Program-made: the position numbers and the translations under genes
Origin: a virus
Lineage: Duplodnaviria > Caudoviricetes
IMG/VR virus record: IMGVR_UViG_3300008255_000162
Location: 1-52,841 of that record
DNA length: 52,841 nt
Strand: one strand, 5' to 3'
Notes under the pieces: generated by a model
Told to the model about the DNA's origin: nothing
Database searches by the model: none
The model's input: only the letters and a program-made list of their open reading frames with translations
In this document: positions 2,818 through 52,690 of the stretch, piece after piece
Position numbering within the stretch: the stretch's first letter is position 1
How the letters are laid out: each line of letters starts with the position of its first letter

Positions 2818-2884
2818 ACCGGAACGGCCACCCCGGAGCGCGCGAGTCTCGGGCTGACGCCACCCCCCCAACCCGGTGCCCCCC

Positions 2885-2913
2885 TTGTACTTGTCGGTTG
2901 ATCGTGCTACACT
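2885..2913 (+). promoter_or_regulatory. Sigma70-type promoter candidate for the packaging operon
   Basis: TTGTAC-17 nt-TACACT with extended -10 TG, just upstream of ORF 2926. Confidence 0.5.
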
Positions 2914-2925
2914 GGATGAAAGGGA

Positions 2926-3372
2926 TTGTCCGTGGCCAAGAACAGAGAGCCAAAGCCGGAGCCGATTGTAGTTGCGCTGCCGGATCGTCTGCTCGCTCTC
3001 CTCGCAGAGGGTCAGATCACCGACCCTCAACGCTACCGCGACCTGGCTTCCGCTCTGATGGAGGCCGCGCTGTTGGGTGCCATCCCTTCGAGTCGTACAG
3101 GATTCATTAGAGAAATGATGGCAATGATGCGTGACTCGCTCATGACGAAGACGGGGAGCGATAGCCCGAACGTCATTCTGAACACGCTGTTTTCGATGAG
3201 TCAGGACAGTGGAGCGAAGCGAGTCGGCGTGTACGATGTGAATCTTGATGAGCCGGAAGAAGAGGTCAAACGCCCCGAGAAGATCGAGCGTGCATCCTCT
3301 TCCGAACTGCGTGAACGGCAGATCAAGGAGATCCCGTTCGATTCAAGGATGTTCGAGCGCGAGAGCGCATAG
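2926..3372 (+). CDS. Hypothetical protein, possible terminase small subunit
   Basis: First gene of the operon upstream of TerL; 148 aa; assignment is positional only. Confidence 0.5.
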   Translation: MSVAKNREPKPEPIVVALPDRLLALLAEGQITDPQRYRDLASALMEAALLGAIPSSRTGFIREMMAMMRDSLMTKTGSDSPNVILNTLFSMSQDSGAKRVGVYDVNLDEPEEEVKRPEKIERASSSELRERQIKEIPFDSRMFERESA

Positions 3373-3380
3373 AGGAAATC

Positions 3381-3920
3381 ATGGAAAAGCGCAAGGGTAG
3401 GAAGAACACTGCGAGCATGACCCCCACCGAACTGATCAAGGAAATGGTCATCGAGGAACCGGCCGCGCAGCCGGTAGAGGAACCGAAGGAAGCCTCTCGT
3501 GATCTGATCGAAGACACGCTCACCCTGTTCTTCACCTACCACCGACCGAAGAACGCGGCGCAGTCTGATCTCTACAGCAGGATCCGCATACAGGAGGAGA
3601 TCGCGCACAGTGAGTTCGAGCGGATCTGGCTGACCATCCGTGCAGGGGAGACCCTCAGTTCCGAAGCCCCGACCGTCTTCGATCGAATCAACGGGGTATG
3701 CCGCGAGTTCGCCCGCGTGATCTTGACGAAATGCGCGGACTTTTCTTCTACGACCATGGCGTTCGAGCACGTGTGCAACGCTCGGATGCTGGCCAACGAG
3801 GGAGTCGCGACCTGGAGTGGGCACAACTTCCAACTCGCGCACGATCAGCTCCTTCTGGCTCGCCTGTGCGCGAGTCGCTCCGTCGCTATCGCCGGCGTGC
3901 TGAGCGAGCCGAGCGAATAG
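3381..3920 (+). CDS. Acb2/Tad1-like hairpin-domain protein (putative nucleotide-signal sponge)
   Basis: FTYHRP...Q...Y.RIR and F..VI...C.......A......ARM.AN.GVA pattern resembles the phage FTYHxP hairpin family; GAGGA RBS. Confidence 0.55.
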   Translation: MEKRKGRKNTASMTPTELIKEMVIEEPAAQPVEEPKEASRDLIEDTLTLFFTYHRPKNAAQSDLYSRIRIQEEIAHSEFERIWLTIRAGETLSSEAPTVFDRINGVCREFARVILTKCADFSSTTMAFEHVCNARMLANEGVATWSGHNFQLAHDQLLLARLCASRSVAIAGVLSEPSE

Positions 3921-3937
3921 ACCAATCGGAGGTCTCC

Positions 3938-4285
3938 GTGGAAGAACTGATCGCTCACCTGTTCGGGGATTACGTCCTTCAGGCGCATCGCATGGCAGTG
4001 AGGAAGGTCGACTCCGCGACGTGGGCGGTCATCCATGGAGCGTTCTACACGATTCCCTTCCTCCTGCTCACGCAGAGTGTAGTCGCTCTCTCTGTGATCT
4101 TCTTGACTCATGTCGTGATCGATCACTGGCGGATCGCGAGCCGCCTGAAAGCTCGGTATGAACGACTGTGGTCGGGATCCATGCGGGAGTTCTCCTCGGC
4201 GCCAGCCTGGATCGCAGTGTGGGTCACGATCATCATCGACAACAGCTTCCATCTGCTGATCAATCATCTCGCGTTGATGCTATGA
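3938..4285 (+). CDS. DUF3307-like membrane protein
   Basis: LIAHLFGDYVLQ...H...Y...TH..ID motif with hydrophobic segments; GTG start after GGAGG. Confidence 0.75.
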   Translation: MEELIAHLFGDYVLQAHRMAVRKVDSATWAVIHGAFYTIPFLLLTQSVVALSVIFLTHVVIDHWRIASRLKARYERLWSGSMREFSSAPAWIAVWVTIIIDNSFHLLINHLALML

Positions 4286-4782
4286 AGCAGGATGGTCAGG
4301 TCCGACTCATCGTAGTCCCGTGTAGTCGGGATCCCGCACTCGTGTACCTGCGTAAGGTGCATCGACATCACGGCCGACCACAAGGATTCAAGTTGGCCTT
4401 AGCTTGCCTGGAAGAGGCGACCGGTAGAGTCTGTGGGGTCGCAATGCTCGGGCGTCCGATCGCTCGTGGGTTGGATGATGGCTACACGTGGGAGGTGGTT
4501 CGCCTCGCGACAGACGGTACGCCCAATGCGTGCAGTGCGCTTCTGGGGGCCTGTGCGCGCCTGTGCCGCGTGCTGCGTCTCCGGGTGGTGACGTACACCC
4601 TACCCGAGGAGGGGGGAGCCTCGCTGCGTGCGGCCGGCTGGGAGCACCGGGCTCGAACTCACCGTACGCCGGAGCGAACTTGGGCCAACCGTCCCGACCG
4701 TGAGGATTGGGTTGGGGGCGACAAAGATCGGTGGGGATTGGATTTCCGCCCGACTGACTTGCCAAAGTTGGTTTGGGAATGA
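4282..4782 (+). CDS. XF1762/Mom-like GNAT-fold DNA modification protein
   Basis: HRHH, GVAMLGRP.AR.LDDG.T.EV.RLATDGTPNACS.L, TYTL..E.GASLRAAGW motifs; ATGA overlaps on both sides. Confidence 0.75.
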   Translation: MKQDGQVRLIVVPCSRDPALVYLRKVHRHHGRPQGFKLALACLEEATGRVCGVAMLGRPIARGLDDGYTWEVVRLATDGTPNACSALLGACARLCRVLRLRVVTYTLPEEGGASLRAAGWEHRARTHRTPERTWANRPDREDWVGGDKDRWGLDFRPTDLPKLVWE

Positions 4783-6494: not shown

Positions 6495-6507
6495 GCTGTA
6501 GGACTGA

Positions 6508-8241
6508 ATGCACCCGATAGTCATACAGGAGCTACTGAAAGGGCACAAGCAACGTGTCGAGCGGATCGAAGTACGATACCGCCGGTACATGCAGTGGCTG
6601 CATGGTGACTTCTGGGCGGACGACCCAGCCGACCCGGAAGCAGAAGGTCTTGCCGACACCAACTATTCGTACGCATTTCTCGACTCCATGGTCGCTGGCA
6701 TCGTCCCGACCAACCCGAGGGTGACGATCACGGACCTCGTTGGGAAGAACGAGAAAGCTGCGAAGATGCGACAGGCGGTTGCGAATGCGACCCTGCGGCA
6801 GACCGACGCGACCCGTCTCCTCTGGCGTGCGGCAACGCAGACGGGCGTACGCGGATCGTCCTTCCTACGCGCCGACTTCAGTCGGAAGCAGGAACGCATT
6901 CGCTTCTCCGTGCGCGGTCCCCAGCACGTGTGGCACGACCAGCAGGCCGACTCCTGGGATCAGATTCGCTATCTGATCGAGGTTGTTCCGATCTACGCAA
7001 GTCAGTTCAGGCAGCGACAGGAGAAGAAGAACGGGTATAGGAAGGACGCAAGTCCGGCATCGCAGATGCAGTACCCGGACTGGCTCCTACCGGTCGTACA
7101 GGAGGAGATCGACGCGGCGATGACCGCCGTGGAGTGGGTTGTGATCTATGAGGTCTACGACTTCGTAGATCACAAGTATTACCACGTACTGGAAGACGTG
7201 GAGAAGCCACTGTTCGAGCACGACCGGTTCCCCCTCGAAGAGATCGGGAACAGGTTCTTCCCCATCATCTTCAACGACGCGATCGATGCTCTCGCCGGGA
7301 TCAGCGATATCAAGCTGATCGAACGGCTCCAAACGTACCTGAACGAACTCGATACGGTCGCCCTTCAGCACGCGCAATCTTCCATTCCCATCCCGGTGGT
7401 GGATACGAAGGGTCTGGACAATCCAGACGACTTTATCAAGAACTACGCGAGGGCAACATCACCGCGGGATGTGATCCCCGCGCAGATCAAGGGGGCGAAG
7501 ACTCTCGCCGACGTACTGACCTACTCGAAGTCCCCTCCGATCTCGCTGGACATGCAGCGGATTCGGGACACATTCGAGCGGGCGATTCACTTCATTCTCG
7601 CCCTTCCGCTATACGAACGCGGAGTTGTCGGGCAGGCCGACATTGCGACCGAAGTCGCTCTGGCGCAAGAAGGGGTCAAGACACGCAACGGTCGCCGTTA
7701 CGTCACGGTCAACAACTCGGTACGCTGGATGGGGAGGGTGTCTGGAACGATCGCTGCGTATCGGTTCACCAGTACCAAGTACGTGCGTGACTCGGATGGC
7801 AAGCCCCTGGCGATCGAGCCCAGAGTCATGGGCAAGGTCCCCATGAACAGGGACGAGGACATCTATGACTACGACGTGACTCCGTTCTCCCCCCCGGAGG
7901 ATTCAGTCGCGACGAAGCTCCGAAACGCCGAGAAGATTCTTGACCGTGCTCTCCAACGGGGAGACGTGATCAAGGTGCGGGAACTCTTCGTCGAGATGTT
8001 CGACCTACTCGGCTTCGATCCGTCTAAGTTCGTCATGTCTCCCGAGGAAATGGCGCAGGCCGCTCAGGCAGCGGCGGTAGCGGCTGGCGGTGGGCAACCG
8101 GGCGCGGGTGCCCCCCCACCCCCTGGTGCCGATCAGATCAACCCTGACTACGGAGTTCTCCCCGGTCCCGGTGGAGAAGTTCCCGGGATTCCGACTGGAA
8201 ACTCAATGCCCCCTGGTGTTGCAGGCGGTCCTGGAGTATAA
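6508..8241 (+). CDS. Portal protein
   Basis: 577 aa directly after TerL; ATEV motif and Q/A/G/P-rich tail typical of P22/T7-like portals. Confidence 0.85.
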   Translation: MHPIVIQELLKGHKQRVERIEVRYRRYMQWLHGDFWADDPADPEAEGLADTNYSYAFLDSMVAGIVPTNPRVTITDLVGKNEKAAKMRQAVANATLRQTDATRLLWRAATQTGVRGSSFLRADFSRKQERIRFSVRGPQHVWHDQQADSWDQIRYLIEVVPIYASQFRQRQEKKNGYRKDASPASQMQYPDWLLPVVQEEIDAAMTAVEWVVIYEVYDFVDHKYYHVLEDVEKPLFEHDRFPLEEIGNRFFPIIFNDAIDALAGISDIKLIERLQTYLNELDTVALQHAQSSIPIPVVDTKGLDNPDDFIKNYARATSPRDVIPAQIKGAKTLADVLTYSKSPPISLDMQRIRDTFERAIHFILALPLYERGVVGQADIATEVALAQEGVKTRNGRRYVTVNNSVRWMGRVSGTIAAYRFTSTKYVRDSDGKPLAIEPRVMGKVPMNRDEDIYDYDVTPFSPPEDSVATKLRNAEKILDRALQRGDVIKVRELFVEMFDLLGFDPSKFVMSPEEMAQAAQAAAVAAGGGQPGAGAPPPPGADQINPDYGVLPGPGGEVPGIPTGNSMPPGVAGGPGV

Positions 8242-8242
8242 G

Positions 8243-12165: not shown

Positions 12166-12266
12166 TCCATCCCCCACCCCCCTGGTACCGAAGGAGAACT
12201 CCGTTCAAAGAGTCAGGACCGCTGCAATCCTGATCTTCTCCGGTGCCCCCCCTTCGGACGTGCAAC

Positions 12267-13733
12267 ATGAACAGGCTACAGCTTCGCGCTCGCATGTTCG
12301 CACAGTCCGACTACGCTCCAACCGCCTCGGACGAGGAGGTTACCCGAGCGAACGGGATGATCAATCAGTCTCTGGAAGAGATCGTGCTGGAGCAGCCGCA
12401 CCTCTTCCGAAAGAGAACGACTGTATTCCCCTTCGCGCCGATTGAGGGGGATGTAGAAGACCCGACTGACCGCATGAACGTGGTGAATACTGCGTTGGAG
12501 CAACTCGGGTACATCTGGGAGCTACAGGCTGCGGTTCAGCCCGTTTGGCCGACCGGTACCGATGAGTGGTCCTGGAACATGAAGGTCCAGGCAACTTCCG
12601 CGTACGACGGTCAGGTGCATGAAAGGCTGATCCGTGAGATGTGGACGGTCGGGGGGAAGATTCGCCTGTCACTTTCGGCGCCCTGGCCGAAAGTGGACGA
12701 GACTAATCTTGAATACAAGATTTACCAACCGTTCATCTGGCTCCCGCCCGATCTCGTGCAGATCGAGAGTGCGTTTGCGTGGCCGTCAGGAACGGGAGTC
12801 GCCTCTTGGGCCGGATACGGCCCCGCTGAGTTCATGGCCGGTCGCTGGACGGCGGTAGGGCGCGCGGACGTATTCAACGAGTACGGAATCGACTTTCAGA
12901 TCGGACCGACGTTCACTCCCCCTCCTCCCGAGAACGCACCAGACGTGCAACTGGTCGGGGAACAGGGAGGGCATCCGTGGGATGGACCGGATCCCGCTGG
13001 TGAGCTTGAGTACATCCTAACTCTCTGTATGGGTCGGCGTCCCGTCGATACATACTCGGGGAAGGGATTCAGAGAGCCCCTGTTCGAGTCGCATCCATCG
13101 CCTGCTTCGACCTCAATCGTCGTCGCGTTCGGGGGCCCGGGAGTTCAGATCAATCTGCCCAACATGGATTGGATGCTGAACTTCTACCCCGGACTTCCGA
13201 CGATCTTCGCACCAGATCGTGACACACGAGCGGGGACCTTCTGGCGGATCTACCGTCGAAGAAAGACCGCGACCATTGACAATCCACCGACGAATCTCGT
13301 ACTGCCAACGATGGTGTTCACGCCGGACGCGTTTGAACTTCTTGCCGAAGTGCAAACGCACGAGACCGTGTTCTACGACCAGGGACACGACATTACCGAC
13401 AAGACCGTTCGCCTGAAGCCGCACCAGTCGTATAGAAGCATCCTTCTGACTCAGCCGGTTGCCGATGATCTTCGGATCGAAGTCGTAGGCATCGTCGCCC
13501 CCCCACCCCTGGTACACGACACGGATGTTGCTGAGATCCCAATCGAAGCAATGCCCTTGCTGGTCGCGAAGTGCCTCAGGTATTGGGCGGCGCACATTGG
13601 CGATCGGGATCTCGTGAATGATGCGAAGGAAGACGCCCGCGCAGCATCCGACGTGATCAGTCAAACCTTCGGAACGCTTGTGGACGGCATCCGTAGAAAA
13701 GAAAATCCACGTCGAAGATTCCCTAGAAGATAA
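12267..13733 (+). CDS. Head-tail adaptor / tail tubular protein A-like, with large insertion
   Basis: N-terminal helical LRARM...N.MINQSL.EI and C-terminal L..DTDV.EIP....LLV pattern of podovirus adaptors. Confidence 0.55.
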   Translation: MNRLQLRARMFAQSDYAPTASDEEVTRANGMINQSLEEIVLEQPHLFRKRTTVFPFAPIEGDVEDPTDRMNVVNTALEQLGYIWELQAAVQPVWPTGTDEWSWNMKVQATSAYDGQVHERLIREMWTVGGKIRLSLSAPWPKVDETNLEYKIYQPFIWLPPDLVQIESAFAWPSGTGVASWAGYGPAEFMAGRWTAVGRADVFNEYGIDFQIGPTFTPPPPENAPDVQLVGEQGGHPWDGPDPAGELEYILTLCMGRRPVDTYSGKGFREPLFESHPSPASTSIVVAFGGPGVQINLPNMDWMLNFYPGLPTIFAPDRDTRAGTFWRIYRRRKTATIDNPPTNLVLPTMVFTPDAFELLAEVQTHETVFYDQGHDITDKTVRLKPHQSYRSILLTQPVADDLRIEVVGIVAPPPLVHDTDVAEIPIEAMPLLVAKCLRYWAAHIGDRDLVNDAKEDARAASDVISQTFGTLVDGIRRKENPRRRFPRR

Positions 13734-20120: not shown

Positions 20121-23100
20121 CCGCAAAGTCGCCAGCAGAACTCGCGTACGAAGAGAGCATTCGTCGAGTCGAGGAGGGTGAGAAGGCAGCAGACGTTGCC
20201 CGAGAGGGTTTGGAGTCTACTCGATTCCTCCGACAAGATCCGAACATCCCAGCCAACTTCCCGGCACTCGGGGCACCGACCGAAGCGGGACAGGAAGCCC
20301 TCGGCGTCGGTGCAGACGGGCAGCCGGTCGGATCTCCGCTCCCCCCCACCCCTGGTACTGATCAGGTCGGTACCGGGGGTGGGGTGGAGATTCCTGAAGC
20401 TGACCTACCCGAAGTTCCCTCCGCACTGATCGGTCCGAACGACGACGTGACTGAAGTACGCCGTCGCTACGCGAATATCAAGGCGGTTCCTCCAGACGAT
20501 CGGGATCTCGTGATCAACCTTGCGGTGCATCTCCGCGCGCAGGGTGATGACGACGCAATGAACGAGTTCATTGCGAAGATCGATTCCCAACCGAAGGCCC
20601 CCCGCGCGCAGGAGAGAGTCGATGCGGCAATCGCGATTGCCCGGCAACTTCCTCTCGGAACGAAACGGGATGCTGCCGATGCCATCCGTGCCGTGATCGC
20701 CACGCAGGAAGAGTCGTTCGGCCCGAATGGAGGTTCCTTCACGGTTCCTCTGACGCGAGATCCCAATACGGGTAGAGTTGCCGTCGACCTTGTCACCGCA
20801 GAGCGCGACCTACAGAATGAATGGTTCTCGGCGTTAGCGCGCGAAGCAGGGTACGCCAGCTTCGACATGCTGCCTCCGAACACGCGTACGGAACTTCGAC
20901 GGCAGGCGGAAGAGAAGGCCCGCGCTGACTTGTGGAAGGTCGCCGCAAACGCGCAGGGCGTTCCTCTCTTGGAAGATCGAGGAAAGCTGGAAAGGGATCT
21001 TCAGGACGAGTGGCTACCTTACGCGGTGCTCCGATCGACCCTCTCGAAGCACACGACTTCCAGTGCGTTCACGCCGACTGCACACGAGATGGCGCAGGAG
21101 AACGCGCAGACGGCAGTCGCCAGAGTCGCCACGACGGGTCTCCTCGATCTTGTCGCTCCGTGGGAACGGCAGTTGCGGATTCAACTCGGCGGTGCCGTGA
21201 CCGGGGAGGATCGAAACGTCGCCGCCGCTCTGTCTGCGAGTACCTTTGCTGGAATGGACCCGGGATACCAGGATTTTCGGAACCGTGTTGTCCACGACTA
21301 CTTGGAGAACCAGGTCGCCTACGATGAGTCGCGTAGGGTGTACGGAACGATTCACGGTTCGGTCGCGGAGGCTTTCGGAGCCAGCCCCGAGGAGGCCGCG
21401 CGAATCGCGAATGACTCCGCTGAGTCCTGGCAGGCGTACGTAGTCGGATTCGTGCCGGAGATGTTCAATGTCTCCCTCGTCGATCTTGCCACCGCCGGAC
21501 TGAGCAAGGGCATTCGGGTAGGTCAGCGCGCACTGGCAGTACGCAATCTCTACAAGACCTCGGAGCACCTGATCGAAGCAGCAGCCCGCCCGGAGGATCT
21601 GGCGAAGGTGCTGACCACTCTGGAAAAGGAGGATTTCACTTCAGCGAAAATCCTCGAAGCTCGGATCAACGAAGCGACCGCTGAAGAAGTAGGAAAGACA
21701 TTCTCCCCGTCGCACTATCAACACATCGTCGGGAATGTCGCAGATGCAGAGAGGGAACTGGAGGAACAGTCGGGGCTGCTCGGGAAATCCCTGGGGAGGA
21801 AGTCGGATGACTCCTCCATTCTCGATTTCGATTCCGTTACCGATCTGAAGGCGAGCGGAGTCGAACAGGCGATTCCGAAGGTGTCCGAAGAGGCTGGTCG
21901 CGCGCTTGTGGTAGAGGCGCAGCTTTCCGCGAAGGAGGCGCAACTGAACGCAGCGCGTGAGTTGAACAAGAAGCACACGGCGCAGACCGTGAAGCGTGCT
22001 GCTAGTGCAAAGAAGATCGCTGAGGCCAATCAGGCTGTACAGGATCTTGCACATGCGAATCCTCGTGTAGCAGACGCATTCCAGGCCGATGTTGCACGAA
22101 CGGCCATCCGGTCAGAGATTCGTGCCCGTGCGGTCGAGCAGGCGAGCTTGGAACAAGCTCTGGGAAAGGTCCCAGACTCTACAAAGTCCGCAGTGCAGAC
22201 GCAGATCGACGCGCACAAGCGGATGACCAAGCAGCTTCGGGGTGACCTCAAGACGTGGGAGGACAAGTACAAGATCGCAATCGACTCCGCGGGGGAGGAT
22301 GCTGGCAAGCTCTACGCGGATCGGATGCGTCAATGGAAGTCCGCGATGACGACCAATGAACGTCTCGCTCGCGAGCTTGGATACGCACCTGCGGCAGTCG
22401 ATCCCGCGCTGGTCACTCGTCTGACCGCTGAGGTGGAATCTCTCGACAACATGGCGAAGATGCACTCCATCCGCGCGCATAGCATGGCGCGGAGGTTGGT
22501 CATCGTCGATGCTAAGTGGGTCGCTACGCATCTCGACGAGATGGATCCCCATGTGGCTGCGCTATTCAGCGCGGGGGGGAAGGGTCCCCTTCGCAAGATG
22601 GCACAAGCAGCGAAGAAGGCAGCGGAGGGGAAGGCGCTCGGCATCGCGGCCGATCAGATGAAACGACTTGCCGCGGATCTCGTAGCCGGCGCGACTGAGA
22701 TCACGAAGCGTACGATCCCCCCCATGTTCTTGGGAATCCCCTTCGCCGGGATCAAGAAAGGGCTCCCCCCTGACGAGTTCAGTCGGGTTACTCCGATCGC
22801 GCAGAAACTGGTCAAGCACGATGGGGGGAAGTTCCTACTCGACCCGGAGAAGTACAAGGCTGCACTCCTGACCGAATACGGAGAGGGTGTATTCGCTGAG
22901 TCACTGGCGAGCGCGATAGAGCACCAGGGCGCGGCTGAGGCGCGCGAGGCAATCCTTACCGTTGATGAGGAGGGCAAGCGGCTCGCGCGCCAACTGAAGG
23001 GCGTAGTGGGCGCGCGTGAGGCAGAACCGGCGTCGTTCATCTTCCTCCGGGCGGTGAACCCCCCCACCTCTGGTACCACCGTTGAACTGACCGGTTCACA

Positions 23101-32864: not shown

Positions 32865-33577
32865 ACCGTATCTCCATTAGATGATGGTGTCCAGTCGAGT
32901 AGGTTCATCTGCTCGAAGGGCAGGGCTCCGTGCCAACGTCTAGGACGGCGTTGGTGCGTGAGCACCCGTGTTGGAAAGCGTGAGAACTCTGGCCACCCCA
33001 CCACCCTGGTACCGACCGTGCTCGGTACATCCTCGACCGGACAGTCGAGGAACGGACGTAGCCGTGCAGGAGTTATCCGATACAAGTTCGTCCAGGCCCC
33101 GCCCATGCGTTCGGAGAGTGGAGTGCTCCAATCCTTGCCGTAGTCCCCGAAGTCGATTGCCAGATAGTCTACAATACGGGAGTCGAGAATGAGAATGGAC
33201 TTAACCATCGACTCGAACTTGTAAGTAAGATCCTTCTCTTGCATGTCTCCGACGCGACCAGCGGGTTTGTAGTGCACAAACGCGTAGAACAGGCGCGGTC
33301 GGTACACGGGCAGTGTTCCATTGTCACGAATCCAGTCGTACGACCGATGCTGTGTTACTCTCACGTAGAAGCGTTTGATCCCGGCCTTCACCTCGACCAT
33401 TGCTGTCTGGTCTTTCCAGAACAGGTCGGGGTACACGTATCCATCTTGATCATCGAATGGACAGGGTATGGGATGCGTGCGGGGCCACCGACGAGAGTTT
33501 GGAAGTACGCTCTGCACGAGGTCGGCAGCTAATGTACCGATCTTTCCACGTGCAGCGTGAGGACCCAAACGAGTCAT
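32858..33577 (-). CDS. PD-(D/E)XK restriction-endonuclease-like protein
   Basis: YPDLFW....VEVKAG motif; ATG at 33577 overlaps the MTase stop (ATGA). Confidence 0.6.
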   Translation of the reverse strand: MTRLGPHAARGKIGTLAADLVQSVLPNSRRWPRTHPIPCPFDDQDGYVYPDLFWKDQTAMVEVKAGIKRFYVRVTQHRSYDWIRDNGTLPVYRPRLFYAFVHYKPAGRVGDMQEKDLTYKFESMVKSILILDSRIVDYLAIDFGDYGKDWSTPLSERMGGAWTNLYRITPARLRPFLDCPVEDVPSTVGTRVVGWPEFSRFPTRVLTHQRRPRRWHGALPFEQMNLLDWTPSSNGDTVW

Positions 33578-34131
33578 TTCCATGCTCGCGGTCCAGTAAT
33601 CCAGATCAGCTTGGTACCAGGGGGTGGGGGGAGATCCCTCCTCCACACGTAGAATCCGTATTCTGTCATGTCGTTTCCCCCGTGAGTGAACGAGGGGCGA
33701 GGGGTTACAATGTAGATGGTGTGTGGGTTGTTCTCATTCCAGAAATCGACCCGTTTTCTCGCGGCGAGCAGGTTGATCCTGAGTAGGTAGGCGACCCCTA
33801 CCGTTGCAATGTCGAGTGCGTGCTGAATGTGATCTTGTACATCGGTGTACGGCGGGTTCCCAACGATCCAGTGTGGACGGTGCGCGTCGGGGAAACTCGC
33901 TCGCAGGAAGTCGGCATTCCGCGAGGCTTTGACCAGTTTCAGTCCCGCCGCGCCGGGATCGGTGTCGAGCGCCCATACATGCTCCGTCTTCTTCAAGAGT
34001 GGACGAACGAACGATCCGGATCCACATGACGGTTCGAGGGTGACTTGTCCCCTCTCGATAGGGAGGAGGCTGACCAGCGTTGCAGCCAGTTTCGGGGGGG
34101 TGTTGTAGATGTCTGCCGCTATTCTCGTCAT
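33574..34131 (-). CDS. Small phage amino-DNA methyltransferase
   Basis: D.YNTP, LEPSCGSGSF, DFL, VGNPPY, RPSF motifs. Confidence 0.85.
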   Translation of the reverse strand: MTRIAADIYNTPPKLAATLVSLLPIERGQVTLEPSCGSGSFVRPLLKKTEHVWALDTDPGAAGLKLVKASRNADFLRASFPDAHRPHWIVGNPPYTDVQDHIQHALDIATVGVAYLLRINLLAARKRVDFWNENNPHTIYIVTPRPSFTHGGNDMTEYGFYVWRRDLPPPPGTKLIWITGPRAWK

Positions 34132-38914: not shown

Positions 38915-39172
38915 CTTATTTCTCCCTGATGGGTCGGGGCATCGAGTTAGCTGTCTACCTTCGATTCCGATTATATCGGTTGCCCCGTTATTCTTCTCGG
39001 TCGAGCCGAGTGCTGTTCAGTCTGCGATGTAACCGGGTGGAGTCACCCTCATCTTCTTCACTCCGGGGTGCAAACCGCCCGGTTGCCTATTGCCGGACGG
39101 ATTGCGGGGGAGAGATGGGGAGTACCGACCGTGATGATGGAATCGGTCGGCACCCCCCACCCCCGGTACCGA

Positions 39173-41646: not shown

Positions 41647-41868
41647 TTACTTCTTGAAGTCAGCTTTCCGCATGAGTAGGTCGAGAATCGGATGAGAATC
41701 CATCGCCCTCTCTGAAAGCCGACGAGTGAAATCCTGCGACATCTCGTCGTCTCTTCTCGTACCGGTCGGTAAATCAGCCGTCATGCCGACAACGATGCAG
41801 CCGACCACGAACAGTACCAGGGGGGTGGGGGGCCGTTCGGCCCACGGATCACGGATTGCTCGTGTCAC
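41647..41868 (-). CDS. Small membrane protein
   Basis: One hydrophobic segment; GGAGG upstream. Confidence 0.55.
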   Translation of the reverse strand: MTRAIRDPWAERPPTPLVLFVVGCIVVGMTADLPTGTRRDDEMSQDFTRRLSERAMDSHPILDLLMRKADFKK

Positions 41869-43550: not shown

Positions 43551-45271
43551 ACTGCTCTCCTTGCCGTTTCGACGAGTCGCCTCAGCATGTCGGACTGACT
43601 CCGAGTACCTGAAAGAGCCTGCTCGATCGCTGCGGCCTCTTCATCACCGACCACCTCTGCGACAGTCGGTAGCTTGTCCAGCAGCGACTCGTGAATGATC
43701 TCTTCCACGCTGCCTCGAATGAGCGGATACCGCACGAGTACCGGGCGGGTTTGTCCGAGCCTGCTTACACGTCCTTCCCATTGAATAATATGCCGGGGCG
43801 TCCATGGCAACATGACGACGTAAAGAATATCAGTGTCCTGCAAGTTCAGATACTCACCCCAAGCGTACCCGGTCCCCACGAGAATACATCCCCCTCTGTG
43901 ATCCATATAGGCGTGTCGAATCCTTGTACGTTCCTGACTCGGTGTAGACCCATGAGCCATCCAGACTGGAACCTGAGAGCTTACCGCGCTGACCTTCTTT
44001 GCAATCTCTTCCCCCAGGCGTTCGCAGTCTTCCACCCGCCCGGTGAACACCAGCACCTTTGCTCCTCCGAGGGCATCGCGCACCGCGTTTTGCACCGTCC
44101 AGCTTCGCTTACGGCTGGCCGTCTCGCAGACGGCGGCCTCTGTAATGGACTGCTCGTCTCCAGAGCGCACAGCGGCACGGCGAGCCTGTGTAGCCTCCCG
44201 ACTCGCCCCGTTCAACTCGACGGGGGACAACCAGATCAACTGCCGGCGCTTTGGAGGTAGCGCGGCGTTGATGACCGAAGCGGGAACCGTCTTGACCAGC
44301 GTAGCCAATCGCTTGTTCAGTTGCCGCGTGTTCGATCGTCCCTCATAGCGGAACCCGTAACCGTCATGCTCTCCCGCGCAGTAATGCAGACCGAATCCGT
44401 GCTTGTTCCCCCAAGCCATCGGTTCGAGCAGGTCAAGCTGAGCGAAGAGATCGATCAGCAGGTTGCTGATCGGAGTAGCCGTGAGTTCAAGCCGGTTGCT
44501 TGCATTGCGCGCAAGCACCATAGTCGCCGCCGTGCGTGTCTCTTTCAGACGGTAGTCGGTTTCTCCGTCCTCATCGACTACCTCCGTCCACCGTGACGGG
44601 TTCTTCGCGTAATGCGTTTCGTCGAATGTGATGGCGAAGGGCGCGAGATTCTCACTGATCCACGCCCACCACCCCAGATAGAAATCGCCACGACTGCCAG
44701 GATGTAATGTCTCCCAACCGACGAGATACACAGTCGGATGCTCAACCGGGCGTACTTCTACATTCGGGAGCCATGCGCCTGACCGCTTTCGCACCGCGCC
44801 TCGAACGCCTTCGAGTACGACGGTATCGAACGCAGTGCACTGACGTATCTCCTCCCGCCAAGTGTCGATTGCACCGCCCGGGACGGCGACTACCATCCGT
44901 CGTCCGCTCATCCACAAACGGAGAAGCTGCACAAGCGCGACGACAGTCTTTCCACCGCCAGGTTTGATCCAAGTTGCCCACGACGGAACCGAAGACATAC
45001 CGGCAACGATGTCTGCCTGGTAGTCCTTCAGTTCCCACGGCGCGGACCAGTGTGCCGACTTATCCAACATGCGGCGCAGTCGGTCACGATCGAAAGCCGG
45101 TGGTCTCCAACCCCCCACCCCTGGTACTACACCGGAAAGGTTCTTTGGTACTTTCCAGATTCTCCCCCACTTACGGACGCCCGGAATCGACTGAAACCGA
45201 GCGTCCAGTTCTCGAAGGAAGTTCCAGTTTCTTCTGTCTTCTGGTCCCTCGAAAGGGACTTTGATCGGCAT
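43547..45271 (-). CDS. SF2 (SNF2-like) DNA helicase
   Basis: YQ, PGGGKT, FDETH, LTATP, Q.EGRVSRLGQ motifs. Confidence 0.9.
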   Translation of the reverse strand: MPIKVPFEGPEDRRNWNFLRELDARFQSIPGVRKWGRIWKVPKNLSGVVPGVGGWRPPAFDRDRLRRMLDKSAHWSAPWELKDYQADIVAGMSSVPSWATWIKPGGGKTVVALVQLLRLWMSGRRMVVAVPGGAIDTWREEIRQCTAFDTVVLEGVRGAVRKRSGAWLPNVEVRPVEHPTVYLVGWETLHPGSRGDFYLGWWAWISENLAPFAITFDETHYAKNPSRWTEVVDEDGETDYRLKETRTAATMVLARNASNRLELTATPISNLLIDLFAQLDLLEPMAWGNKHGFGLHYCAGEHDGYGFRYEGRSNTRQLNKRLATLVKTVPASVINAALPPKRRQLIWLSPVELNGASREATQARRAAVRSGDEQSITEAAVCETASRKRSWTVQNAVRDALGGAKVLVFTGRVEDCERLGEEIAKKVSAVSSQVPVWMAHGSTPSQERTRIRHAYMDHRGGCILVGTGYAWGEYLNLQDTDILYVVMLPWTPRHIIQWEGRVSRLGQTRPVLVRYPLIRGSVEEIIHESLLDKLPTVAEVVGDEEAAAIEQALSGTRSQSDMLRRLVETARRAV

Positions 45272-45280: not shown

Positions 45281-46144
45281 TCAGGATTTCGGGGCCGACT
45301 TCCTGGCGGGTCCTTCGGATCCGACTCGCTTCATCAGGGCTTCGGCCAGCCAATCGGCAATCATGCTGGTGTCCCGCAGGTACCCGACCCCCTCGACGGT
45401 CAGGCCGGGAGCGGCCTTGAACACATCGGCCACCGCTCGATTGACGACAGTGGGATCCTTGGTGTGAATCCCCGTCCGCCGAAAGAACGGCCGGCTAGTC
45501 AGGAACTCGACCGCCTTCTTGGCTTCAGGCGTCTGCCCGGCGGACAGGTCGATGGTGGAATCCGACTCCTCCAACCCTGACTCGTCGGCGGGCGGCCTGA
45601 ACGACTGGATCATCCTTGCTTCTCTCGAACCCGGAGCTTGAATGGACTCTCCGAGTTCTTCAGGCGCACCGTCCGACTTGTCTGAGTCGGTCGGCTTCAG
45701 GGCGTTCTCGGCGGCCTTGCGCCGATCGGCTGCCAGCGTCTCGCGCGTGACTGCCGGTTCGATCCTGAGTTCCTTGACGATGGCGTTGTACGCGGTCGTT
45801 CCCTTCTTCGGCCTGTAACCGGCGTGCGTACGCCCGGTCGGGTCCTTGATGATGATGATCTTGTCACCGTTGTACGCGTACTCATAGCCGCCGAATCCCT
45901 TCTTCGTCTGATATCCCTCGGGAGTCTCATACCCACGAGGTTCGGGAGACGAGTCGTCGGTACCAGGGGTGGGGGGCTCCTCACCGTCCCCCCAGGCTGC
46001 CCGCTGTTTCTCGACCTCCTGCACGGCCGGTTTGACCCGGGTGGTGTCGAGATCGAACGGACGAGATCCTCCCGACCGGCGGATCTTCCCCTCGTTGCGG
46101 GCTCGCACGGCGGCCTCCTTCAGTGCTTTGTAGTCTTGACTCAT
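45281..46144 (-). CDS. Hypothetical protein (287 aa)
   Basis: AAGGAGG RBS; strongly biased codons; own promoter candidate. Confidence 0.75.
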   Translation of the reverse strand: MSQDYKALKEAAVRARNEGKIRRSGGSRPFDLDTTRVKPAVQEVEKQRAAWGDGEEPPTPGTDDSSPEPRGYETPEGYQTKKGFGGYEYAYNGDKIIIIKDPTGRTHAGYRPKKGTTAYNAIVKELRIEPAVTRETLAADRRKAAENALKPTDSDKSDGAPEELGESIQAPGSREARMIQSFRPPADESGLEESDSTIDLSAGQTPEAKKAVEFLTSRPFFRRTGIHTKDPTVVNRAVADVFKAAPGLTVEGVGYLRDTSMIADWLAEALMKRVGSEGPARKSAPKS

Positions 46145-46298: not shown

Positions 46299-48425
46299 TC
46301 ACTCTCTCGATCTCCGTCCGATCGCAATCCCGGACCACCAGATCCCGTCTGCCTTTCGAGGAAGTTGAGTCACACCACGGTCGGATAGGGCTTCCTTGAA
46401 GCGCCGGTTCGACCACGGATTCTCCCTTCGGTTGGTCGCCCACTCCTTGTACGCATCGTATATCTCAGCGGCCTTGCACTTCTGGTCGCCACCGAGACGG
46501 CAACAATCGGAAATGAAGGATCCGATGATGTCTTGCGATTCACGGTACGCTAAGGTCGCGGCGTCGACCAAGTCGAACTTGGGCAACCTGCTCGCATACC
46601 ATGCCACCGCGCCGCGAACCATCCAGGCGAGGATACCTTGACCCTCCGCAAGCAGCTTGGCCTGTAGGTCATCGTCCTTCTTCTCGGGAGGAATCGTGAC
46701 CGTGAAGGGAAGCAACTTGATCCGACGCCAGATCGCCAGGTCCGTCCCCATGATCTCCGGGCGATGATTGGACGAGAGCCATATCTTACCAGTCGGGCGG
46801 AACTCAAAGAACTCCTTGTATAGGAACCGAGCGGGTACCGTGTCCTGTCCGGTGAGCTGCTTCACGACCTGCTCGTCGAGGCGTCCTCTAGCTTTGCCCT
46901 CAGACGCAACGACGAACCGCGCACCGACCAACCTCGCCAGGTCGTTGCGCGGTCCATCGTTGCGTGTTTCCATGAACGAGTTGAAGTCCGCCTGTCGGGC
47001 GTAGTCGGCCATGACATGGCGTACGACTTCGAGGAACGTGCTCTTTCCGTTCTGGCCTGTTCCATGCATGAGAAACATGACCTGTTCGGATGTCTCACCT
47101 GTCAGGCTGTACCCGAGCGCGACTTGAAGGAAGCGCGCGTACTCCTTGTCGCCATTCAGAATCTCGCTCAGGAACTTTCCCCACAGTGGACACTTGGCTT
47201 GTGGGTTGTAGGCGACCGGGGACTGATTCGTGATCAGGAGGTCGCGATTGTGAGGGTACAACTTCCCGTTTCGCAGATCGACGAGCCCGTTGCTACAACC
47301 GAACAGATGCAAGTCTTGGTCGAGATCGCTGGCCACGACCGGCACACCCACTTCGGTCTCGGCCACTCGCACCATCGCGGACAGAGCGCCGGCGGACTCC
47401 GACTTAGAAGCCCACTTACGCATGGCCTTGGCAAGATCGGTGTCGGTCACGTGTGCAGCATGATCTTTGATCATACCCGGAACGGTCTTGGCGAAGCGAT
47501 GGATCTCTCCGTCTTCGTCCCCCACCCACCTGGTACCGTCCCAGATCAGCCAACGCTGAGCAGACACGTTGAATCGAATGCGACCGCCGAACACACGGAC
47601 CAAGCGGCGCGCATTGCCGAGGTCACTGAGCGGCGCGAAGTTCGCATCGTATCCAGCCATCGACTGCGCGATGGCTACGATTTCATCCTCTGCCAAGGGG
47701 GGGTCACACAACCGCGTATTGACCGCGAGTAGCACCTCCTCGATCAGCTCAGGTCCGGCACCGCGCCCGCGGAGCCAACCGCCTATCTTGGCAAGTTCGC
47801 TGTTGCGAGCGCCGGAGGGAATGATCTCGGATAGGTCGGTCGTCGCGTCGAGATAGACATCCTCTCTCGCCTTGCGAGACAGCGCGTCGAGGAGCCACTG
47901 TGGAATGTCCGCGAGTTGGGTCGGATCTCCTCGAAGGGTCGTGTACTTCTGCCCGCTACGATGAAGCGTCGGGGGCGCGACCGCGATGTTGCCGGTCGAG
48001 AGGAACTCGATTCCCGACCATGGTTTGCACGCCCGAGGCATCTCCATGCCGTTCGGTACGTTGAACCAGAAGTGTGCGCCGCCCCCTCCGGTTTGTACCA
48101 GGTGGGTGGGGGGGAACTTCCCATACTGATCAGTGAGTTCTCGAAGCGACTTGAACCCCCCCGACTTCTTGTCAACATCCAGCACGACGATTCGACTGTC
48201 CTTTCCTGGAGCAACGCCGATCCCCGCATTGGGAAACGACCGCCACCAATCACGGATAGTCGTCTCGTCACGTGTTGCCGATTTCCACCCGCCCTGCACG
48301 CGCGGATGCTTGGCTGCGTGCCCACAGTCTTTGCCGGCCGCGCAAGCGCAGCGGTCGCCTTTCCACTCGAATAGCGGAACGACTGCAACTCCAGCCTTGG
48401 CGAGGGCCAATGCAGCGCGGAGCAT
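46299..48425 (-). CDS. Bifunctional primase-polymerase fused to PriCT, D5_N and P4-family SF3 helicase
   Basis: KHP, LDVD, TGGGG.H, VAPPTLH.SG..Y (primpol); GARN; DLGNARR; GTGQNGKST, VKQLTG.D...AR, AIWRRI. Confidence 0.95.
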   Translation of the reverse strand: MLRAALALAKAGVAVVPLFEWKGDRCACAAGKDCGHAAKHPRVQGGWKSATRDETTIRDWWRSFPNAGIGVAPGKDSRIVVLDVDKKSGGFKSLRELTDQYGKFPPTHLVQTGGGGAHFWFNVPNGMEMPRACKPWSGIEFLSTGNIAVAPPTLHRSGQKYTTLRGDPTQLADIPQWLLDALSRKAREDVYLDATTDLSEIIPSGARNSELAKIGGWLRGRGAGPELIEEVLLAVNTRLCDPPLAEDEIVAIAQSMAGYDANFAPLSDLGNARRLVRVFGGRIRFNVSAQRWLIWDGTRWVGDEDGEIHRFAKTVPGMIKDHAAHVTDTDLAKAMRKWASKSESAGALSAMVRVAETEVGVPVVASDLDQDLHLFGCSNGLVDLRNGKLYPHNRDLLITNQSPVAYNPQAKCPLWGKFLSEILNGDKEYARFLQVALGYSLTGETSEQVMFLMHGTGQNGKSTFLEVVRHVMADYARQADFNSFMETRNDGPRNDLARLVGARFVVASEGKARGRLDEQVVKQLTGQDTVPARFLYKEFFEFRPTGKIWLSSNHRPEIMGTDLAIWRRIKLLPFTVTIPPEKKDDDLQAKLLAEGQGILAWMVRGAVAWYASRLPKFDLVDAATLAYRESQDIIGSFISDCCRLGGDQKCKAAEIYDAYKEWATNRRENPWSNRRFKEALSDRGVTQLPRKADGIWWSGIAIGRRSRE

Positions 48426-48427
48426 GA

Positions 48428-48640: not shown

Positions 48641-48688
48641 TGCTATCTCCCGTTGGGTACTGTAACACGGCGTTGAATGGACGGCCAG

Positions 48689-48844
48689 TGTAGCCGAGAT
48701 GTAGCCGTGCGATCGTCGAAAGCGAGCGTTGAATGCCGCATACTCGAAGAATGTACCCGTATGTAGCCACCGAGAGAGGAGTCCTTCAGTATATACTCTG
48801 ATCCGATCTATTAAACAATACCAGACGGCTACACTACACTACAC
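48689..48844. repeat. Iteron-like array B, homologous to array A
   Basis: TGTAGCC x3 and TGTACCC, then TATTAAACAATA, then GGCTACACTACACTACA, as at 2686-2766. Confidence 0.75.
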
Positions 48845-49270: not shown

Positions 49271-49473
49271 TCACCTGTCCTCCGTAAGTGATCAATATAG
49301 CGATCAAACTCGACCGTTCCTGTACGGAACTCCAAGTAATCTGCGTTCGCATCGACGATTGCGACCTTGTTCTGATACGGCAGTGCACCTGCCACGAACT
49401 TCATGGCGTCCAGCAATGACTGTTCCTTCTGTATGAAAGCAGTTTCCTCAATGTATACTGTGTTGGCATTGCA

Positions 49474-50248: not shown

Positions 50249-50623
50249 CTACTTCCCCTTGTCTTTGACCAGAATGGTCAGTGTGTCTCTTTGTTCTTCT
50301 TCTTCGTACCAGGTAGATATCTTATCCCCGTTGCTGAATGAAACCGACTTCCTTTCTCTATCGGCAATCCACATGGGCCGGTATGCGCCCGAGTGGTGAC
50401 GGAACGCGCCGGACCACTTTTCCACTTCGCGTTGGTCGGGCAACCGCATTTCATACCAAGCGGCCATGAGCATTGCGTCCGACCAAGATATCCGCGCCTC
50501 GCTGCCTACTCTCTCCTGACTCCGAATAGGCTCTCGAAGAGTCTCGGCGCAGTAATCCTCGAAGTCTTCGACCGTGATCGGTCCGAGGATATGCAATCTG
50601 GGTCGGCTTCTGCACCTACTCAT
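50249..50623 (-). CDS. Degenerate FGE-sulfatase-like paralog lacking the variable region
   Basis: ITVEDFEDY...ISWSDAM..AAW...RLPDQRE; ATG at 50623 overlaps the upstream stop. Confidence 0.55.
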   Translation of the reverse strand: MSRCRSRPRLHILGPITVEDFEDYCAETLREPIRSQERVGSEARISWSDAMLMAAWYEMRLPDQREVEKWSGAFRHHSGAYRPMWIADRERKSVSFSNGDKISTWYEEEEQRDTLTILVKDKGK

Positions 50624-50919
50624 CGAGGTCTTCTTCGCTGACCAGGAGTAGATTCCTCGACCGCACCGAGAGGGTCTATGACCGTCATCGGTACATCCGA
50701 GAATATCGGCCTCGCCAACCACTCGAATAGTACGGTAGCGTCCATGAACTCAGTCACGAACTGCCTGTGATTGCTCCCATCCATATGGAATACGGCGATT
50801 GCACCCGGGCCAGCATTAAGTAGAATCTCGATAGACCTGACCTCTGCGCTGTACCGCCGGATCCAGGATAGATTGTTTACCGAATGGTAGTTACCCGCTA
50901 TGTCATACCAACCATTCAT
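50620..50919 (-). CDS. Hypothetical protein
   Basis: 99 aa; ATGA-coupled on both sides. Confidence 0.65.
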   Translation of the reverse strand: MNGWYDIAGNYHSVNNLSWIRRYSAEVRSIEILLNAGPGAIAVFHMDGSNHRQFVTEFMDATVLFEWLARPIFSDVPMTVIDPLGAVEESTPGQRRRPR

Positions 50920-51386
50920 TCTCTCACCTTCACGATTCGACCCTCACTGATCAGTCGTCCGGCAAACGATAGTCTGTCCGCGACCTTCATGAGCATCTCA
51001 GGTCCACCGTTAATGGCGGTATCATGATCCTTGTAATGACGCATTCGGTAGGGGATATCTCCGACCATTCTATCCATGCGGAGAAGGATCTCTTTAGCCC
51101 GATCCGGTATGGTCGGTCTCGGGTTACGCCGGTGAGACACGGAACCTACAACGCGGAAGTTATCACAGAAGGATTCGATCGAATCCGGGCTGGGGTACGA
51201 CTTGAGTGCGAGTACCAACCCGTTGTACTGCGCCAGAAGTTCGGCCATCGTGTTCCCGGTCGTATTCAACGGGCCGAACCCATCGAGCAGAGGGTCGCCC
51301 GTTCCAGCGGGAATGACCAGGGCGCCCCACCCGCCGGCATTCTGTCGCCAGGATCCATCGGCATAGATTTTCAGGTGTACACTCAC
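50916..51386 (-). CDS. Ribonuclease HI-like protein
   Basis: IYADGS, GGWG, N.MAEL.A, CDN, ADRLS catalytic pattern. Confidence 0.8.
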   Translation of the reverse strand: MSVHLKIYADGSWRQNAGGWGALVIPAGTGDPLLDGFGPLNTTGNTMAELLAQYNGLVLALKSYPSPDSIESFCDNFRVVGSVSHRRNPRPTIPDRAKEILLRMDRMVGDIPYRMRHYKDHDTAINGGPEMLMKVADRLSFAGRLISEGRIVKVRE

Positions 51387-51613
51387 AGCAGGTCACTCCC
51401 GAACTCGTCTACGACCGCCACTTGAATAGAGCCGAGGAACTCAATCTCGCGTTGCCAGTGCCTATTGGTATGCAGCGTCCGTCGATCACCACTGCTACAC
51501 ACGAGCGTCTGAACTGCACCGAGTAGGTCGGGAATGGTTCGATACGTTGTCTTTGCACCATCGATCCATGCGACATGCCCGGCCATTATAACTCCTCGAT
51601 TAGCGTCGACCAC
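51383..51613 (-). CDS. Hypothetical protein
   Basis: Small ORF coupled to RNase H; start uncertain. Confidence 0.5.
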   Translation of the reverse strand: MVDANRGVIMAGHVAWIDGAKTTYRTIPDLLGAVQTLVCSSGDRRTLHTNRHWQREIEFLGSIQVAVVDEFGSDLL

Positions 51614-51933
51614 GAATCCGTGTCGATCTGTATGCAGTCAGCAATGCCATCAATATGAACGATCATCGTTGGTACTATCTGCTTGCGTACCTGTCTAAGA
51701 GGAATAGCATACAGATCCGACTTGACGCCCAAGAACGTGACACGAAGCGGATCGCGTTCACCGTTCGACTCGATTGTGATAGACACCGAGTATTGACCTG
51801 ACCCTAAGCAGACAATCACGATGTTCACAATGCGCTTTGAACAGCGGAGTTCATGTCTAATCTCTCCGAGACTACTGGTCGTGTAGTCAATGGATCCTGA
51901 CATGATCACCGATTCCCCGATTCTCGTGCGCAC
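51586..51933 (-). CDS. Hypothetical protein
   Basis: ORF in the minus operon; start uncertain. Confidence 0.5.
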   Translation of the reverse strand: MRTRIGESVIMSGSIDYTTSSLGEIRHELRCSKRIVNIVIVCLGSGQYSVSITIESNGERDPLRVTFLGVKSDLYAIPLRQVRKQIVPTMIVHIDGIADCIQIDTDSWSTLIEEL

Positions 51934-52033
51934 GATCGACGGCGTGCATACCGGCGATCACCAGACACGTTCCCATCCCCAAAGCGATCAGCAGGATCAC
52001 GATCGCCCATACATACGGAAGGTACTTGACCAT

Positions 52034-52393
52034 CTATTCGTCCTCGAATGGAATGTTATCCTCACCGAGCAGTAAGTCGGCAAAGGCGTTGGAGTCGTAC
52101 TCCTCTGTCGTCCCGAACTGGTCGATCACGCGGTACGTCTTTCCCGGAACGATCGGAACATCGTCCAGTTTAGGTAGCGAGCCGCATACTCTCCAGTTCT
52201 TTATCTGTGCGTAGACTCCCACGCCCTCTCCGGGGAGACAACCATAGTAGTCGAACTCGACGTATACATGATCGTCATACACGACGATCAAGATCGGAGA
52301 GAGAGCCCAGATAGGATGCGTGTTGCCTCGCATGATACCGACCAACGCTTGCCCGTCGTACCTAGTTCGCTCGTATGACGGATGCTCTTTCAT
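52034..52393 (-). CDS. Hypothetical protein with acidic IPF tail
   Basis: GAGGT RBS; ends EDNIPFEDE. Confidence 0.65.
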   Translation of the reverse strand: MKEHPSYERTRYDGQALVGIMRGNTHPIWALSPILIVVYDDHVYVEFDYYGCLPGEGVGVYAQIKNWRVCGSLPKLDDVPIVPGKTYRVIDQFGTTEEYDSNAFADLLLGEDNIPFEDE

Positions 52394-52690
52394 GAATCTA
52401 CCTCTTGCTACTCGCAGTTAGGATCTTGCACAGGTTGGTCAGGTCGGTACCAGGTTGGGGGGGCTGCCTCGAATGCTGGTCGTCCGCGATTCGGCGGTGA
52501 ACCGTTCCTCCTGGACCTTCGGGGCGCGCACCCGAGGAGGGGGGCACGAACATCCTCTGTCTATACAGCACGAACCGGACTTGGGACCGGCGTTGTGGTT
52601 TAACAGGCGGGTTCAGGTCTTATTCATCTGCCTTCTGGTCGTAGCCCATTGCCATTCGAGCTACGCGTGACCATCCCGCCCGCCCCTCGC

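Follow-up and report, generated by a model that had tools for sequence, protein, structure and literature searches.

A dispersed two-part DNA word written into the genes of a phage genome, and its candidate reader

Genome plan and copies of the word

The stretch analysed here, referred to as the window, is the whole IMG/VR virus record IMGVR_UViG_3300008255_000162, a linear phage genome of 52,841 bp (96% complete by CheckV) with a G+C content of about 59%, and the element under study is a C-rich word, CCCCCCACCCCTGGTAC, which recurs through this genome on both strands and mostly inside genes. The datasets holding near-identical sequence are aquifer and groundwater metagenomes, with no RNA datasets among the listed holders. 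The left arm, from about 0.2 to 27.8 kb, carries rightward genes, which include a Mom-like/XF1762 protein, TerL, the portal, capsid-region genes and a 1938-aa protein without a match in Pfam or PDB sequences. The right arm, from 52.4 to 27.8 kb, carries leftward genes, with a replication and repair set (PrimPol-PriCT-D5 primase-helicase, SNF2 helicase, exonuclease, Sak4-like protein and PolA with a UDG domain) and, further, two M.TaqI-like methyltransferases, an SbcC/Rad50-like ATPase and two FGE/EgtB-like proteins. Integrase, repressor and RNA polymerase families were not matched among the 59 open reading frames (ORFs), many of which lack any family, and scans of the window returned no Rfam family and no tRNA gene.

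At up to three mismatches, CCCCCCACCCCTGGTAC was matched 16 times in the window, four of the matches being exact, against a mean of 0.10 and a maximum of 2 in dinucleotide shuffles (n = 100), and CTGGTAC occurs 21 times where 3.78 occurrences are expected. The copies, which span 44 kb, are listed below, followed by one degenerate variant.

8113..8129, + strand, copy with three mismatches (GGTGC variant), in the Gly/Pro-rich C-terminal tail of the portal, aa 536 of 577, PPPPGA
12172..12188, + strand, copy with two mismatches, intergenic, 54 nt ahead of the start at 12243
13499..13515, + strand, exact copy in gene 12243-13733, aa 419, PPPLVH, at an RPxxLxxD site
20342..20358, + strand, exact copy, left half of a head-to-head pair with an 11-nt spacer, in a linker of the 1938-aa protein, PPTPGT
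20370..20386, - strand, copy with two mismatches, right half of the head-to-head pair and sole - copy of the left arm
23060..23076, + strand, copy with one mismatch, in the 1938-aa protein, aa 982, PPTSGT
29304..29320, + strand, copy with two mismatches, antisense in the M.TaqI-like methyltransferase 28528-29922, YQGGGG
32996..33012, + strand, copy with three mismatches, antisense in ORF 32858-33646, TRVVGW
33614..33630, - strand, copy with two mismatches, sense, at the C-terminus of the small methyltransferase 33574-34131, PPPPGT, in the overlap with the next ORF
39153..39169, + strand, copy with one mismatch (C for T), intergenic
41814..41830, - strand, copy with two mismatches, at the beginning of the small ORF 41647-41868
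45111..45127, + strand, exact copy, antisense in the SNF2 helicase, aa 49, VPGVGG
45960..45976, - strand, exact copy in ORF 45281-46144, PPTPGT
47520..47536, + strand, copy with three mismatches, antisense in the primase, aa 297, GTRWVG, over a conserved DGxRW
48095..48111, - strand, copy with three mismatches, sense in the primase, aa 105, PPTHLV, over a conserved LPxT
52447..52463, - strand, copy with three mismatches, intergenic, 53 nt ahead of the ATG (52393) of the first right-arm gene
2863..2880, + strand, degenerate variant C7-AA-CCC-GGTGCC, which needs more than three mismatches or an indel

By the ORF list, 13 of the 16 copies lie in ORFs and three are intergenic (12172, 39153 and 52447), the host ORFs including the portal, the SNF2 helicase, the primase (two copies) and both methyltransferases. 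The coding copies occupy all three phases and both directions and encode unrelated peptides, five of them sharing the frame PP(T/P)(P/S)G(T/A). When codons were shuffled synonymously within each gene (n = 500), with protein and codon usage kept, 92.4% of the bases treated as coding and the intergenic copies held fixed, matches at up to three mismatches reached a mean of 5.31 (sd 1.25, maximum 9) against the 16 observed, and matches at up to two mismatches reached 2.6 (maximum 6) against 11. The shuffled counts are far under 16, and the constraint therefore lies on the DNA. The word is a real and strongly selected DNA-level signal, private to this phage lineage, and it fits no described class among those tested.

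An earlier note on this DNA, made from its letters without database searches, had counted at least 17 near-matches; 16 of them stand at up to three mismatches, and the 17th (2863-2880) is only a degenerate form with GGTGC and no T. The peptides that it had called unrelated (PPPPGA, PPPLVH, PPTPGT, YQGGGG, TRVVGW, VPGVGG, TRWVGD and PPTHLV) were reproduced, its placing of most copies in coding sequences agrees with the 13 found in ORFs, and its view that the constraint acts on DNA and not on protein is borne out by the codon shuffles, by the varied frames and directions and by the substitution of copies onto conserved peptides described below. Its claim of a dispersed signal not described before is in line with a full-text literature search, in which no description of such a motif surfaced, as judged by title or abstract. 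A packaging-operon -35 placed by the note beside 2863-2880 finds no support, as sigma-70-type promoter-like sites in 1-20000 number 0 against 6.9 ± 2.4 in shuffles.

Ten copies lie on the + strand and six on the - strand. Five of the six left-arm copies are on the + strand, or six of seven when the degenerate copy is counted, as the note had it, and the right arm is mixed, at 5 to 5, again as claimed. Relative to the local gene direction, the C-rich strand runs with the genes in ten copies and against them in six, and the six - copies are confined to 20.4-52.4 kb. The association of arm with orientation is not significant (Fisher P 0.31), nor are the clustering of four copies in 3 kb of the primase area and the way + and - copies alternate along the right arm. 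Contigs of four runs covering 29200-49199 are more than 99% alike, with patchy cover in three of them, and none of the 40 differences shown (six more are not shown) falls at the nine motif sites, an uninformative result for 153 of 20,000 bases; the loose contig ends near 39.2 kb correspond to a low-complexity GTC-rich stretch.

Identical variants were observed in neighbouring inverted copies. The two primase copies (47519-47536 and 48095-48112) are 100% complementary over 18 nt, with two A's, and stand 558 nt apart, and the copies at 45111-45127 and 45960-45976 are 100% complementary over 17 nt at a distance of 832 nt, which suggests copying between neighbours or gene conversion, or else a paired function. 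The C run at 33614 was also considered as a frameshift within a longer methyltransferase, which was rejected as homologues of about 164 residues cover 98% of the 185-aa ORF and the enzyme is a whole small one; the ORF that follows it gave no phage match.

Anatomy, origin and relatives of the word

The aligned copies expose a two-part word, with a fixed 3' element, TGGTAC(C)(GACC), preceded by a 5' C/A tract. The GG is invariant in 16/16 copies, TAC follows it in 15-16 of 16, and the base before it is T in 14 copies and C in two, while a weaker extension after TAC reads C in 11, G in 11, A in 11, C in 8 and C in 12 of the 16. The 5' tract is 11-15 nt long and is built of C and A, with a single T as the exception, and its A shifts from 3 to 7 nt before GG, standing at 5 nt in seven copies. 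The C run plus core proposed in the earlier note is recognisable in this arrangement, as is the frequent completion of GGTACC by the CTGGTAC core, which was observed in 10/16 copies. Folding energies of the motif windows (mean -10.8) are comparable with the background (-10.2, P 0.57), with no hairpin or ssi-like structure, and the 20342/20370 pair is the sole site that folds. A second C-rich word, ACCCCCCCGA, was observed in 7 exact copies and 11 at up to one mismatch, at 1457-1484, 14605, 14835, 26418, 34092, 48155 and other positions, and the one strong terminator-like hairpin of the window (1457-1484) has a 12-bp stem made up of two of these copies.

Alignments with relatives indicate that copies were written into genes by point substitution onto conserved peptides. 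The copy in gene 12243-13733 aligns without gaps to RPxxLxxD in 5/5 relatives, and both primase copies, at aa297 and aa105, are likewise gapless and are completed through variable residues and codons around conserved ones; the primase residues P105 and T107, and W295, G297, R299, W300 and D303, under the copies each show conservation of 90% or more across an alignment of 30 sequences. This gapless overlay on conserved residues argues for selection by substitution and not for the spread of a mobile insert, and a mobile insertion (MITE-like or an in-frame repeat) was rejected as no gaps were found at aa419 of the 12243 product or at aa297 and aa105 of the primase. The SNF2 copy at aa49 falls within a 4-residue insertion relative to 2/2 aligned relatives, the portal tail is too variable for an insertion to be judged, and the other copies lie in linkers or tails.

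Outside the window, the word was met in single copies. The 15-mer core, CCCCACCCCTGGTAC, gave one match each in 14/14 viral contigs and at least 120 loci in genomes, with a single match in 118 of the 120 listed, and the 17-mer gave one match each in 75/75 metagenome contigs, none of them related to the window. Leaving aside tRNA-Met 3' ends and attachment-site duplicates, no other genome with more than one copy was found among the matches listed. In 12 of the 120 listed loci (L026, L034, L047, L054, L070, L084, L085, L088, L092, L135, L137 and L140), mostly from groundwater candidate-phyla bacteria, the 15-mer is the 3' end of tRNA-Met(CAT), comprising T-stem, acceptor strand and discriminator, and the two listed loci with more than a single match (L026 and L137) carry a second copy about 200 bp off, like an integration site.

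No relative locus was found for the portal, and phage GenBank gave no DNA match to the window; the best matches to its TerL and primase reach 52% and 45% identity, respectively. Five whole relatives (G002-G006) of 54-56 kb, whose TerL is about 50% identical, all lack the word, and one of them, G004, has direct terminal repeats. Another word, CCCYGGGC, is enriched in G003, G004 and G005, with 32, 21 and 18 copies against order-2 Markov expectations of about 9, 2.6 and 2.5, and more weakly in G002 (14 vs about 6, P 0.003), and it is not enriched in G006 (7 vs 7.2) or in the window (1 copy). It exhibits a strand bias of 18:3 in G004, regardless of gene direction, and of 17:1 in G005. Some copies of CCCYGGGC(A) in G003-G005 (L229-L237) form part of CCGGG...CCCGG hairpins. 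A homologue of the window's primase-helicase was found among the five relatives in G006 only, covering residues 266-687, the D5-type helicase part. Dispersed words are, from these comparisons, a trait of this phage group, and the small sample suggests that the words change with the replication module.

A primase-helicase as candidate reader, and the rival explanations

The candidate reader is encoded in the right arm.

46299..48425, - strand, putative reader of the word, a 708-aa primase-helicase with Prim-Pol, a PriCT_1 helix bundle, D5_N and a DUF5906 P-loop helicase

Its Pfam matches are PF09250 (E 9.8e-36), PF08708 (1.2e-07), PF08706 (1.9e-32) and PF19263 (3e-11). The reading that we rank first, with a probability of roughly 30%, is absent from the analogues offered in the earlier note and is that the copies could be start or loading sites of this pRN1/P4-type primase-helicase, which the phage itself encodes. 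The helix-bundle (PriCT) domain would recognise TGGTACC(GACC) on the single-stranded C-rich template, the primer would start opposite the T immediately 5' of GG, and it would extend along the C tract to give a very stable G-rich primer-template hybrid, with the single wandering A acting as a register lock rather than a contact and stopping slippage on a pure C run. The + copies would prime leftward and the - copies rightward, and priming from the head-to-head pair (20342/20370) would be divergent. With a word this long and private, priming would be limited to phage DNA, so that the genome would have to keep sites every few kb. A more tentative part of the proposal, to which we give slightly less credence, is that the primase-helicase may have evolved its long private template word so as to prime phage DNA only, with self-only priming serving as genome identity.

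One ground for this proposal is the likeness to the pRN1 system. In pRN1 ORF904, which comprises Prim_Pol, a helix bundle and a helicase, the helix-bundle domain is described as binding a fixed motif in the template, with primer synthesis taking place immediately 5' of that motif and slippage occurring on homopolymer templates (PMC8076596). The window encodes the same domain set, and its word, with the fixed element 3' and a variable tract directly 5', agrees in anatomy with a template site of the pRN1 type. The helix-bundle primase RepB' of RSF1010 is described as able to use long specific sites, one per strand, and, as with the sites of both helix-bundle enzymes, function on either strand would be natural for priming and is counted in favour. 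Also counted in favour are the DNA-level signal and the gapless overlay of copies on conserved residues described above, and the observation that four of the five whole relatives lack this primase and that three of these four, G003-G005, are enriched for CCCYGGGC. The differences are equally clear, as the pRN1 element is 5'-GTG-3' (3 nt) and the conserved element here is 6-11 nt, and as ssiA and ssiB of RSF1010 are 40-nt structured sites in one origin, unlike the 16 unstructured and scattered copies of the window.

Several points weigh against the assignment to the primase-helicase. The evidence is that of sequence and assembled contigs. Known primase words are 3-5 nt long and frequent, and a strand with a single site every 5-9 kb would offer few starts for lagging-strand synthesis. 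Relatives of the primase have clustered iterons directly after the primase gene, in L349 (11490-11803), L364 (6452-6718) and L371 (6971-7220), where 8-10-nt repeats (AAGTGTAACA, GTGACACA and ACCTGTCAC) occur in 6-12 copies over about 300 bp and are probable origins; the word shares the protein family with these P4-type origin iterons, but the window has no iteron cluster in 44800-49400, so that the known DNA reading of the primase family is of a different kind. The left arm holds only copies that would prime leftward save for 20370, which requires an extra assumption on where forks start. The spacing of the ten + copies is more even than chance (coefficient of variation 0.43, P ~0.009), which is counted in favour of the reading, but this test was picked after the data had been seen, and neither the full set of 16 (P 0.13) nor the - copies (P 0.28) reach significance in it. 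Six genomes underlie the connection of the word with the primase, and in G006, which has the helicase part of the primase, no strong word specific to that genome emerged.

Docking sites on duplex DNA, for a phage DNA-binding protein acting as regulator, roadblock or architectural factor, are a possible but less likely account, the protein having perhaps one domain for the C tract and another for GGTACCGACC. Its length, asymmetry, two-part build and presence in either direction suit the word to such a role, as does the one head-to-head pair 11 nt apart, and a parallel is offered by the stoperators of Cluster A mycobacteriophages (L5 gp71, TipsytheTRex repressor), where an asymmetric word likewise recurs in more than 15 copies across the genome and a monomeric two-domain repressor is described as reading asymmetric 13-mers at more than 20 sites (PMC9283540), so that two-part reading by a single protein is possible. 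The parallel, which the earlier note had also drawn, breaks down in placement, as the 13-nt stoperators are described as following the direction of transcription and as sitting in promoters and in short gaps between genes (PMC9283540), whereas in the window 13/16 copies lie in ORFs and 6/16 run counter to transcription, ten running with it. Stoperators belong to temperate phages, and no lysogeny gene was recognised among the 59 ORFs, many of which have no family at all; the lack of any integrase or repressor family match makes an immunity system appear unlikely. Moreover, the shifting A and the varying tract length fit base-specific duplex contacts at fixed spacing poorly. Counted for the docking view is a small ORF directly ahead of the primase (48428-48640), which had been labelled RHH in the note, but neither this ORF nor its neighbours has a DNA-binding family in Pfam, PHROGs, PADLOC or NCBIfam. 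A wider search for a reader protein, in PADLOC, NCBIfam, PDB sequences and ESM Atlas, returned no DNA-binding or nuclease candidate, which bears equally on the rather improbable view that the copies are sites of a phage nicking system like those of T5, the phiKMV-like phages and tf, whose virion DNA carries localized single-strand interruptions. In its favour, tf shares the genome plan of two convergent arms with terminal repeats and is described as having 14 nicks at a private 9-nt word, of which tf-related phages use a variant (PMC3517423); G004 has direct terminal repeats, and the one-strand CCCYGGGC of G004 and G005 is of the same cast. The nick sites of tf/LUZ24, the phiKMV-like phages and T5 also resemble the present copies in their private short consensus, in their similar number (a handful to 14), in their position inside genes and in the co-variation of word with lineage. 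However, the nick words described in that source lie on one strand only (PMC3517423), unlike the 10 to 6 observed here, and at the 20342/20370 pair the two strands would both be nicked inside a stretch of about 45 bp. No molecule begin or end points are reported in Logan contigs, which cannot reveal nicks.

The abundance of modification genes (the Mom-like/XF1762 protein, the two M.TaqI-like N6-adenine methyltransferases and the two FGE/EgtB-like proteins) the adenine within GGTAC and the inward-facing G-rich strand of the outermost copies at both genome ends would suit a target or self-mark for sequence-specific DNA modification, or a Chi-like protection signal by which a nuclease would distinguish the phage's DNA from that of the host; this account is unlikely. 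Protective methylation accounts for tolerance of sites but not for an at least 16-fold enrichment of a 17-22 nt word, and both orientations are equally frequent in the right arm. The known words of the Chi and KOPS type measure 5-8 nt, and such words, like uptake words, are expected to be short and abundant in the host genome, so that the Chi/KOPS-like analogue offered in the note fits poorly with a word of 17-22 nt without a multi-copy genome among the matches listed. More improbable still is a promoter or start site for a phage or host RNA polymerase of an unrecognised kind, in which the G-rich strand would supply GGTCGGTACC upstream and an A/G-rich start. T7-group RNA polymerase promoters have about 20 conserved nt, 10-17 copies, some in genes, and a G-rich start, and the word is alike in all four respects; sigma-70-type sites are absent from 1-20 kb, as given above, and the copies at 52447 and 12172 stand immediately upstream of genes. 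The known T7-group promoters all point with the genes, however, and their polymerase is phage-encoded, neither of which applies here, as 10/16 copies run with the genes from the C-rich strand and 6/16 from the G-rich start, most copies lie deep within ORFs, no RNA polymerase family was found among the ORFs and the 1938-aa protein is unmatched. It is very improbable that the word is host-derived, as an uptake-type or repeat word or as a sequence that imitates, or is complementary to, a host tRNA-Met at its 3' end. The identity of the 15-mer with tRNA-Met(CAT) 3' ends at 12 listed loci, two of them with an attachment-site-like duplicate, speaks for it, but the word is single-copy in nearly all genome loci, viral contigs and metagenome contigs listed, the tRNA genes belong largely to low-GC candidate-phyla bacteria against a phage of 59% GC, and the base opposite tRNA A76 is T in 2/16 copies only. 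An artefact of composition, of proline- or glycine-rich coding or of assembly can practically be dismissed: the five coding copies in one PP(T/P)(P/S)G(T/A) frame would be expected of it, but the dinucleotide and synonymous-codon shuffles reject it, the remaining coding copies are in other frames or antisense, three copies are intergenic, and the contigs of the four runs, within their patchy cover, show no other letters, insertions or deletions at the nine sites.

Dispersed private words that override protein coding show that the genome is read as DNA, by an enzyme of the phage, at numerous positions, and few such systems have been described, namely stoperators, nick sites and polymerase promoters; the function of the nick sites was, according to PMC3517423, still unknown after decades. 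The anatomy of the present word is unusually informative, as it combines a fixed element with a tract tolerant of register shifts, and its candidate reader comes from a well-studied enzyme class. If the assignment to the primase-helicase is true, it would show the co-evolution of a private code by a replication enzyme and its genome, and such a code could help to link uncultured phages to their replication modules.

Further features of the window and its relatives

Genes of DNA modification or metabolism are dense in the window (4168-4782, 28528-35463, 35468-37990, 41849-43550 and 49474-49935). Besides the Mom-like/XF1762 gene, which adjoins TerL, the two M.TaqI-like methyltransferases, the SbcC/Rad50-like ATPase and the two FGE/EgtB-like proteins, the set holds a nucleotidyltransferase, a SIS-domain protein and the PolA fused to a UDG-like domain, and given this gene set the virion DNA may be modified. 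GATC occurs 618 times (11.7 per kb vs 3.7 per kb from base composition), and, with both strands counted, AATT (10 vs 115 expected) and CTAG (38 vs 144) are strongly avoided, as are GTCGAC, TCCGGA, GTGCAC, GCATGC, CAGCTG and AGCGCT. The GATC excess and the scarcity of these other words look like restriction avoidance beside a phage Dam-like methyltransferase. A tie between GATC and the dispersed word was considered and rejected, as 9/16 motif windows contain GATC against 48% of random windows, which is the genome background.

The TerL (cluster P0001) and the primase (cluster P0122) of the window are each also found on a 67,716-nt contig, and either the window record may be incomplete or the other assembly may be a concatemer or carry flanking DNA. 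A viral contig with a related primase, L330, exhibits at 1991-2380 seven direct repeats containing CTCCCCCACACGCGCGGGGAGGGATTG with a period of 61-62 nt, a set that looks like a CRISPR array.

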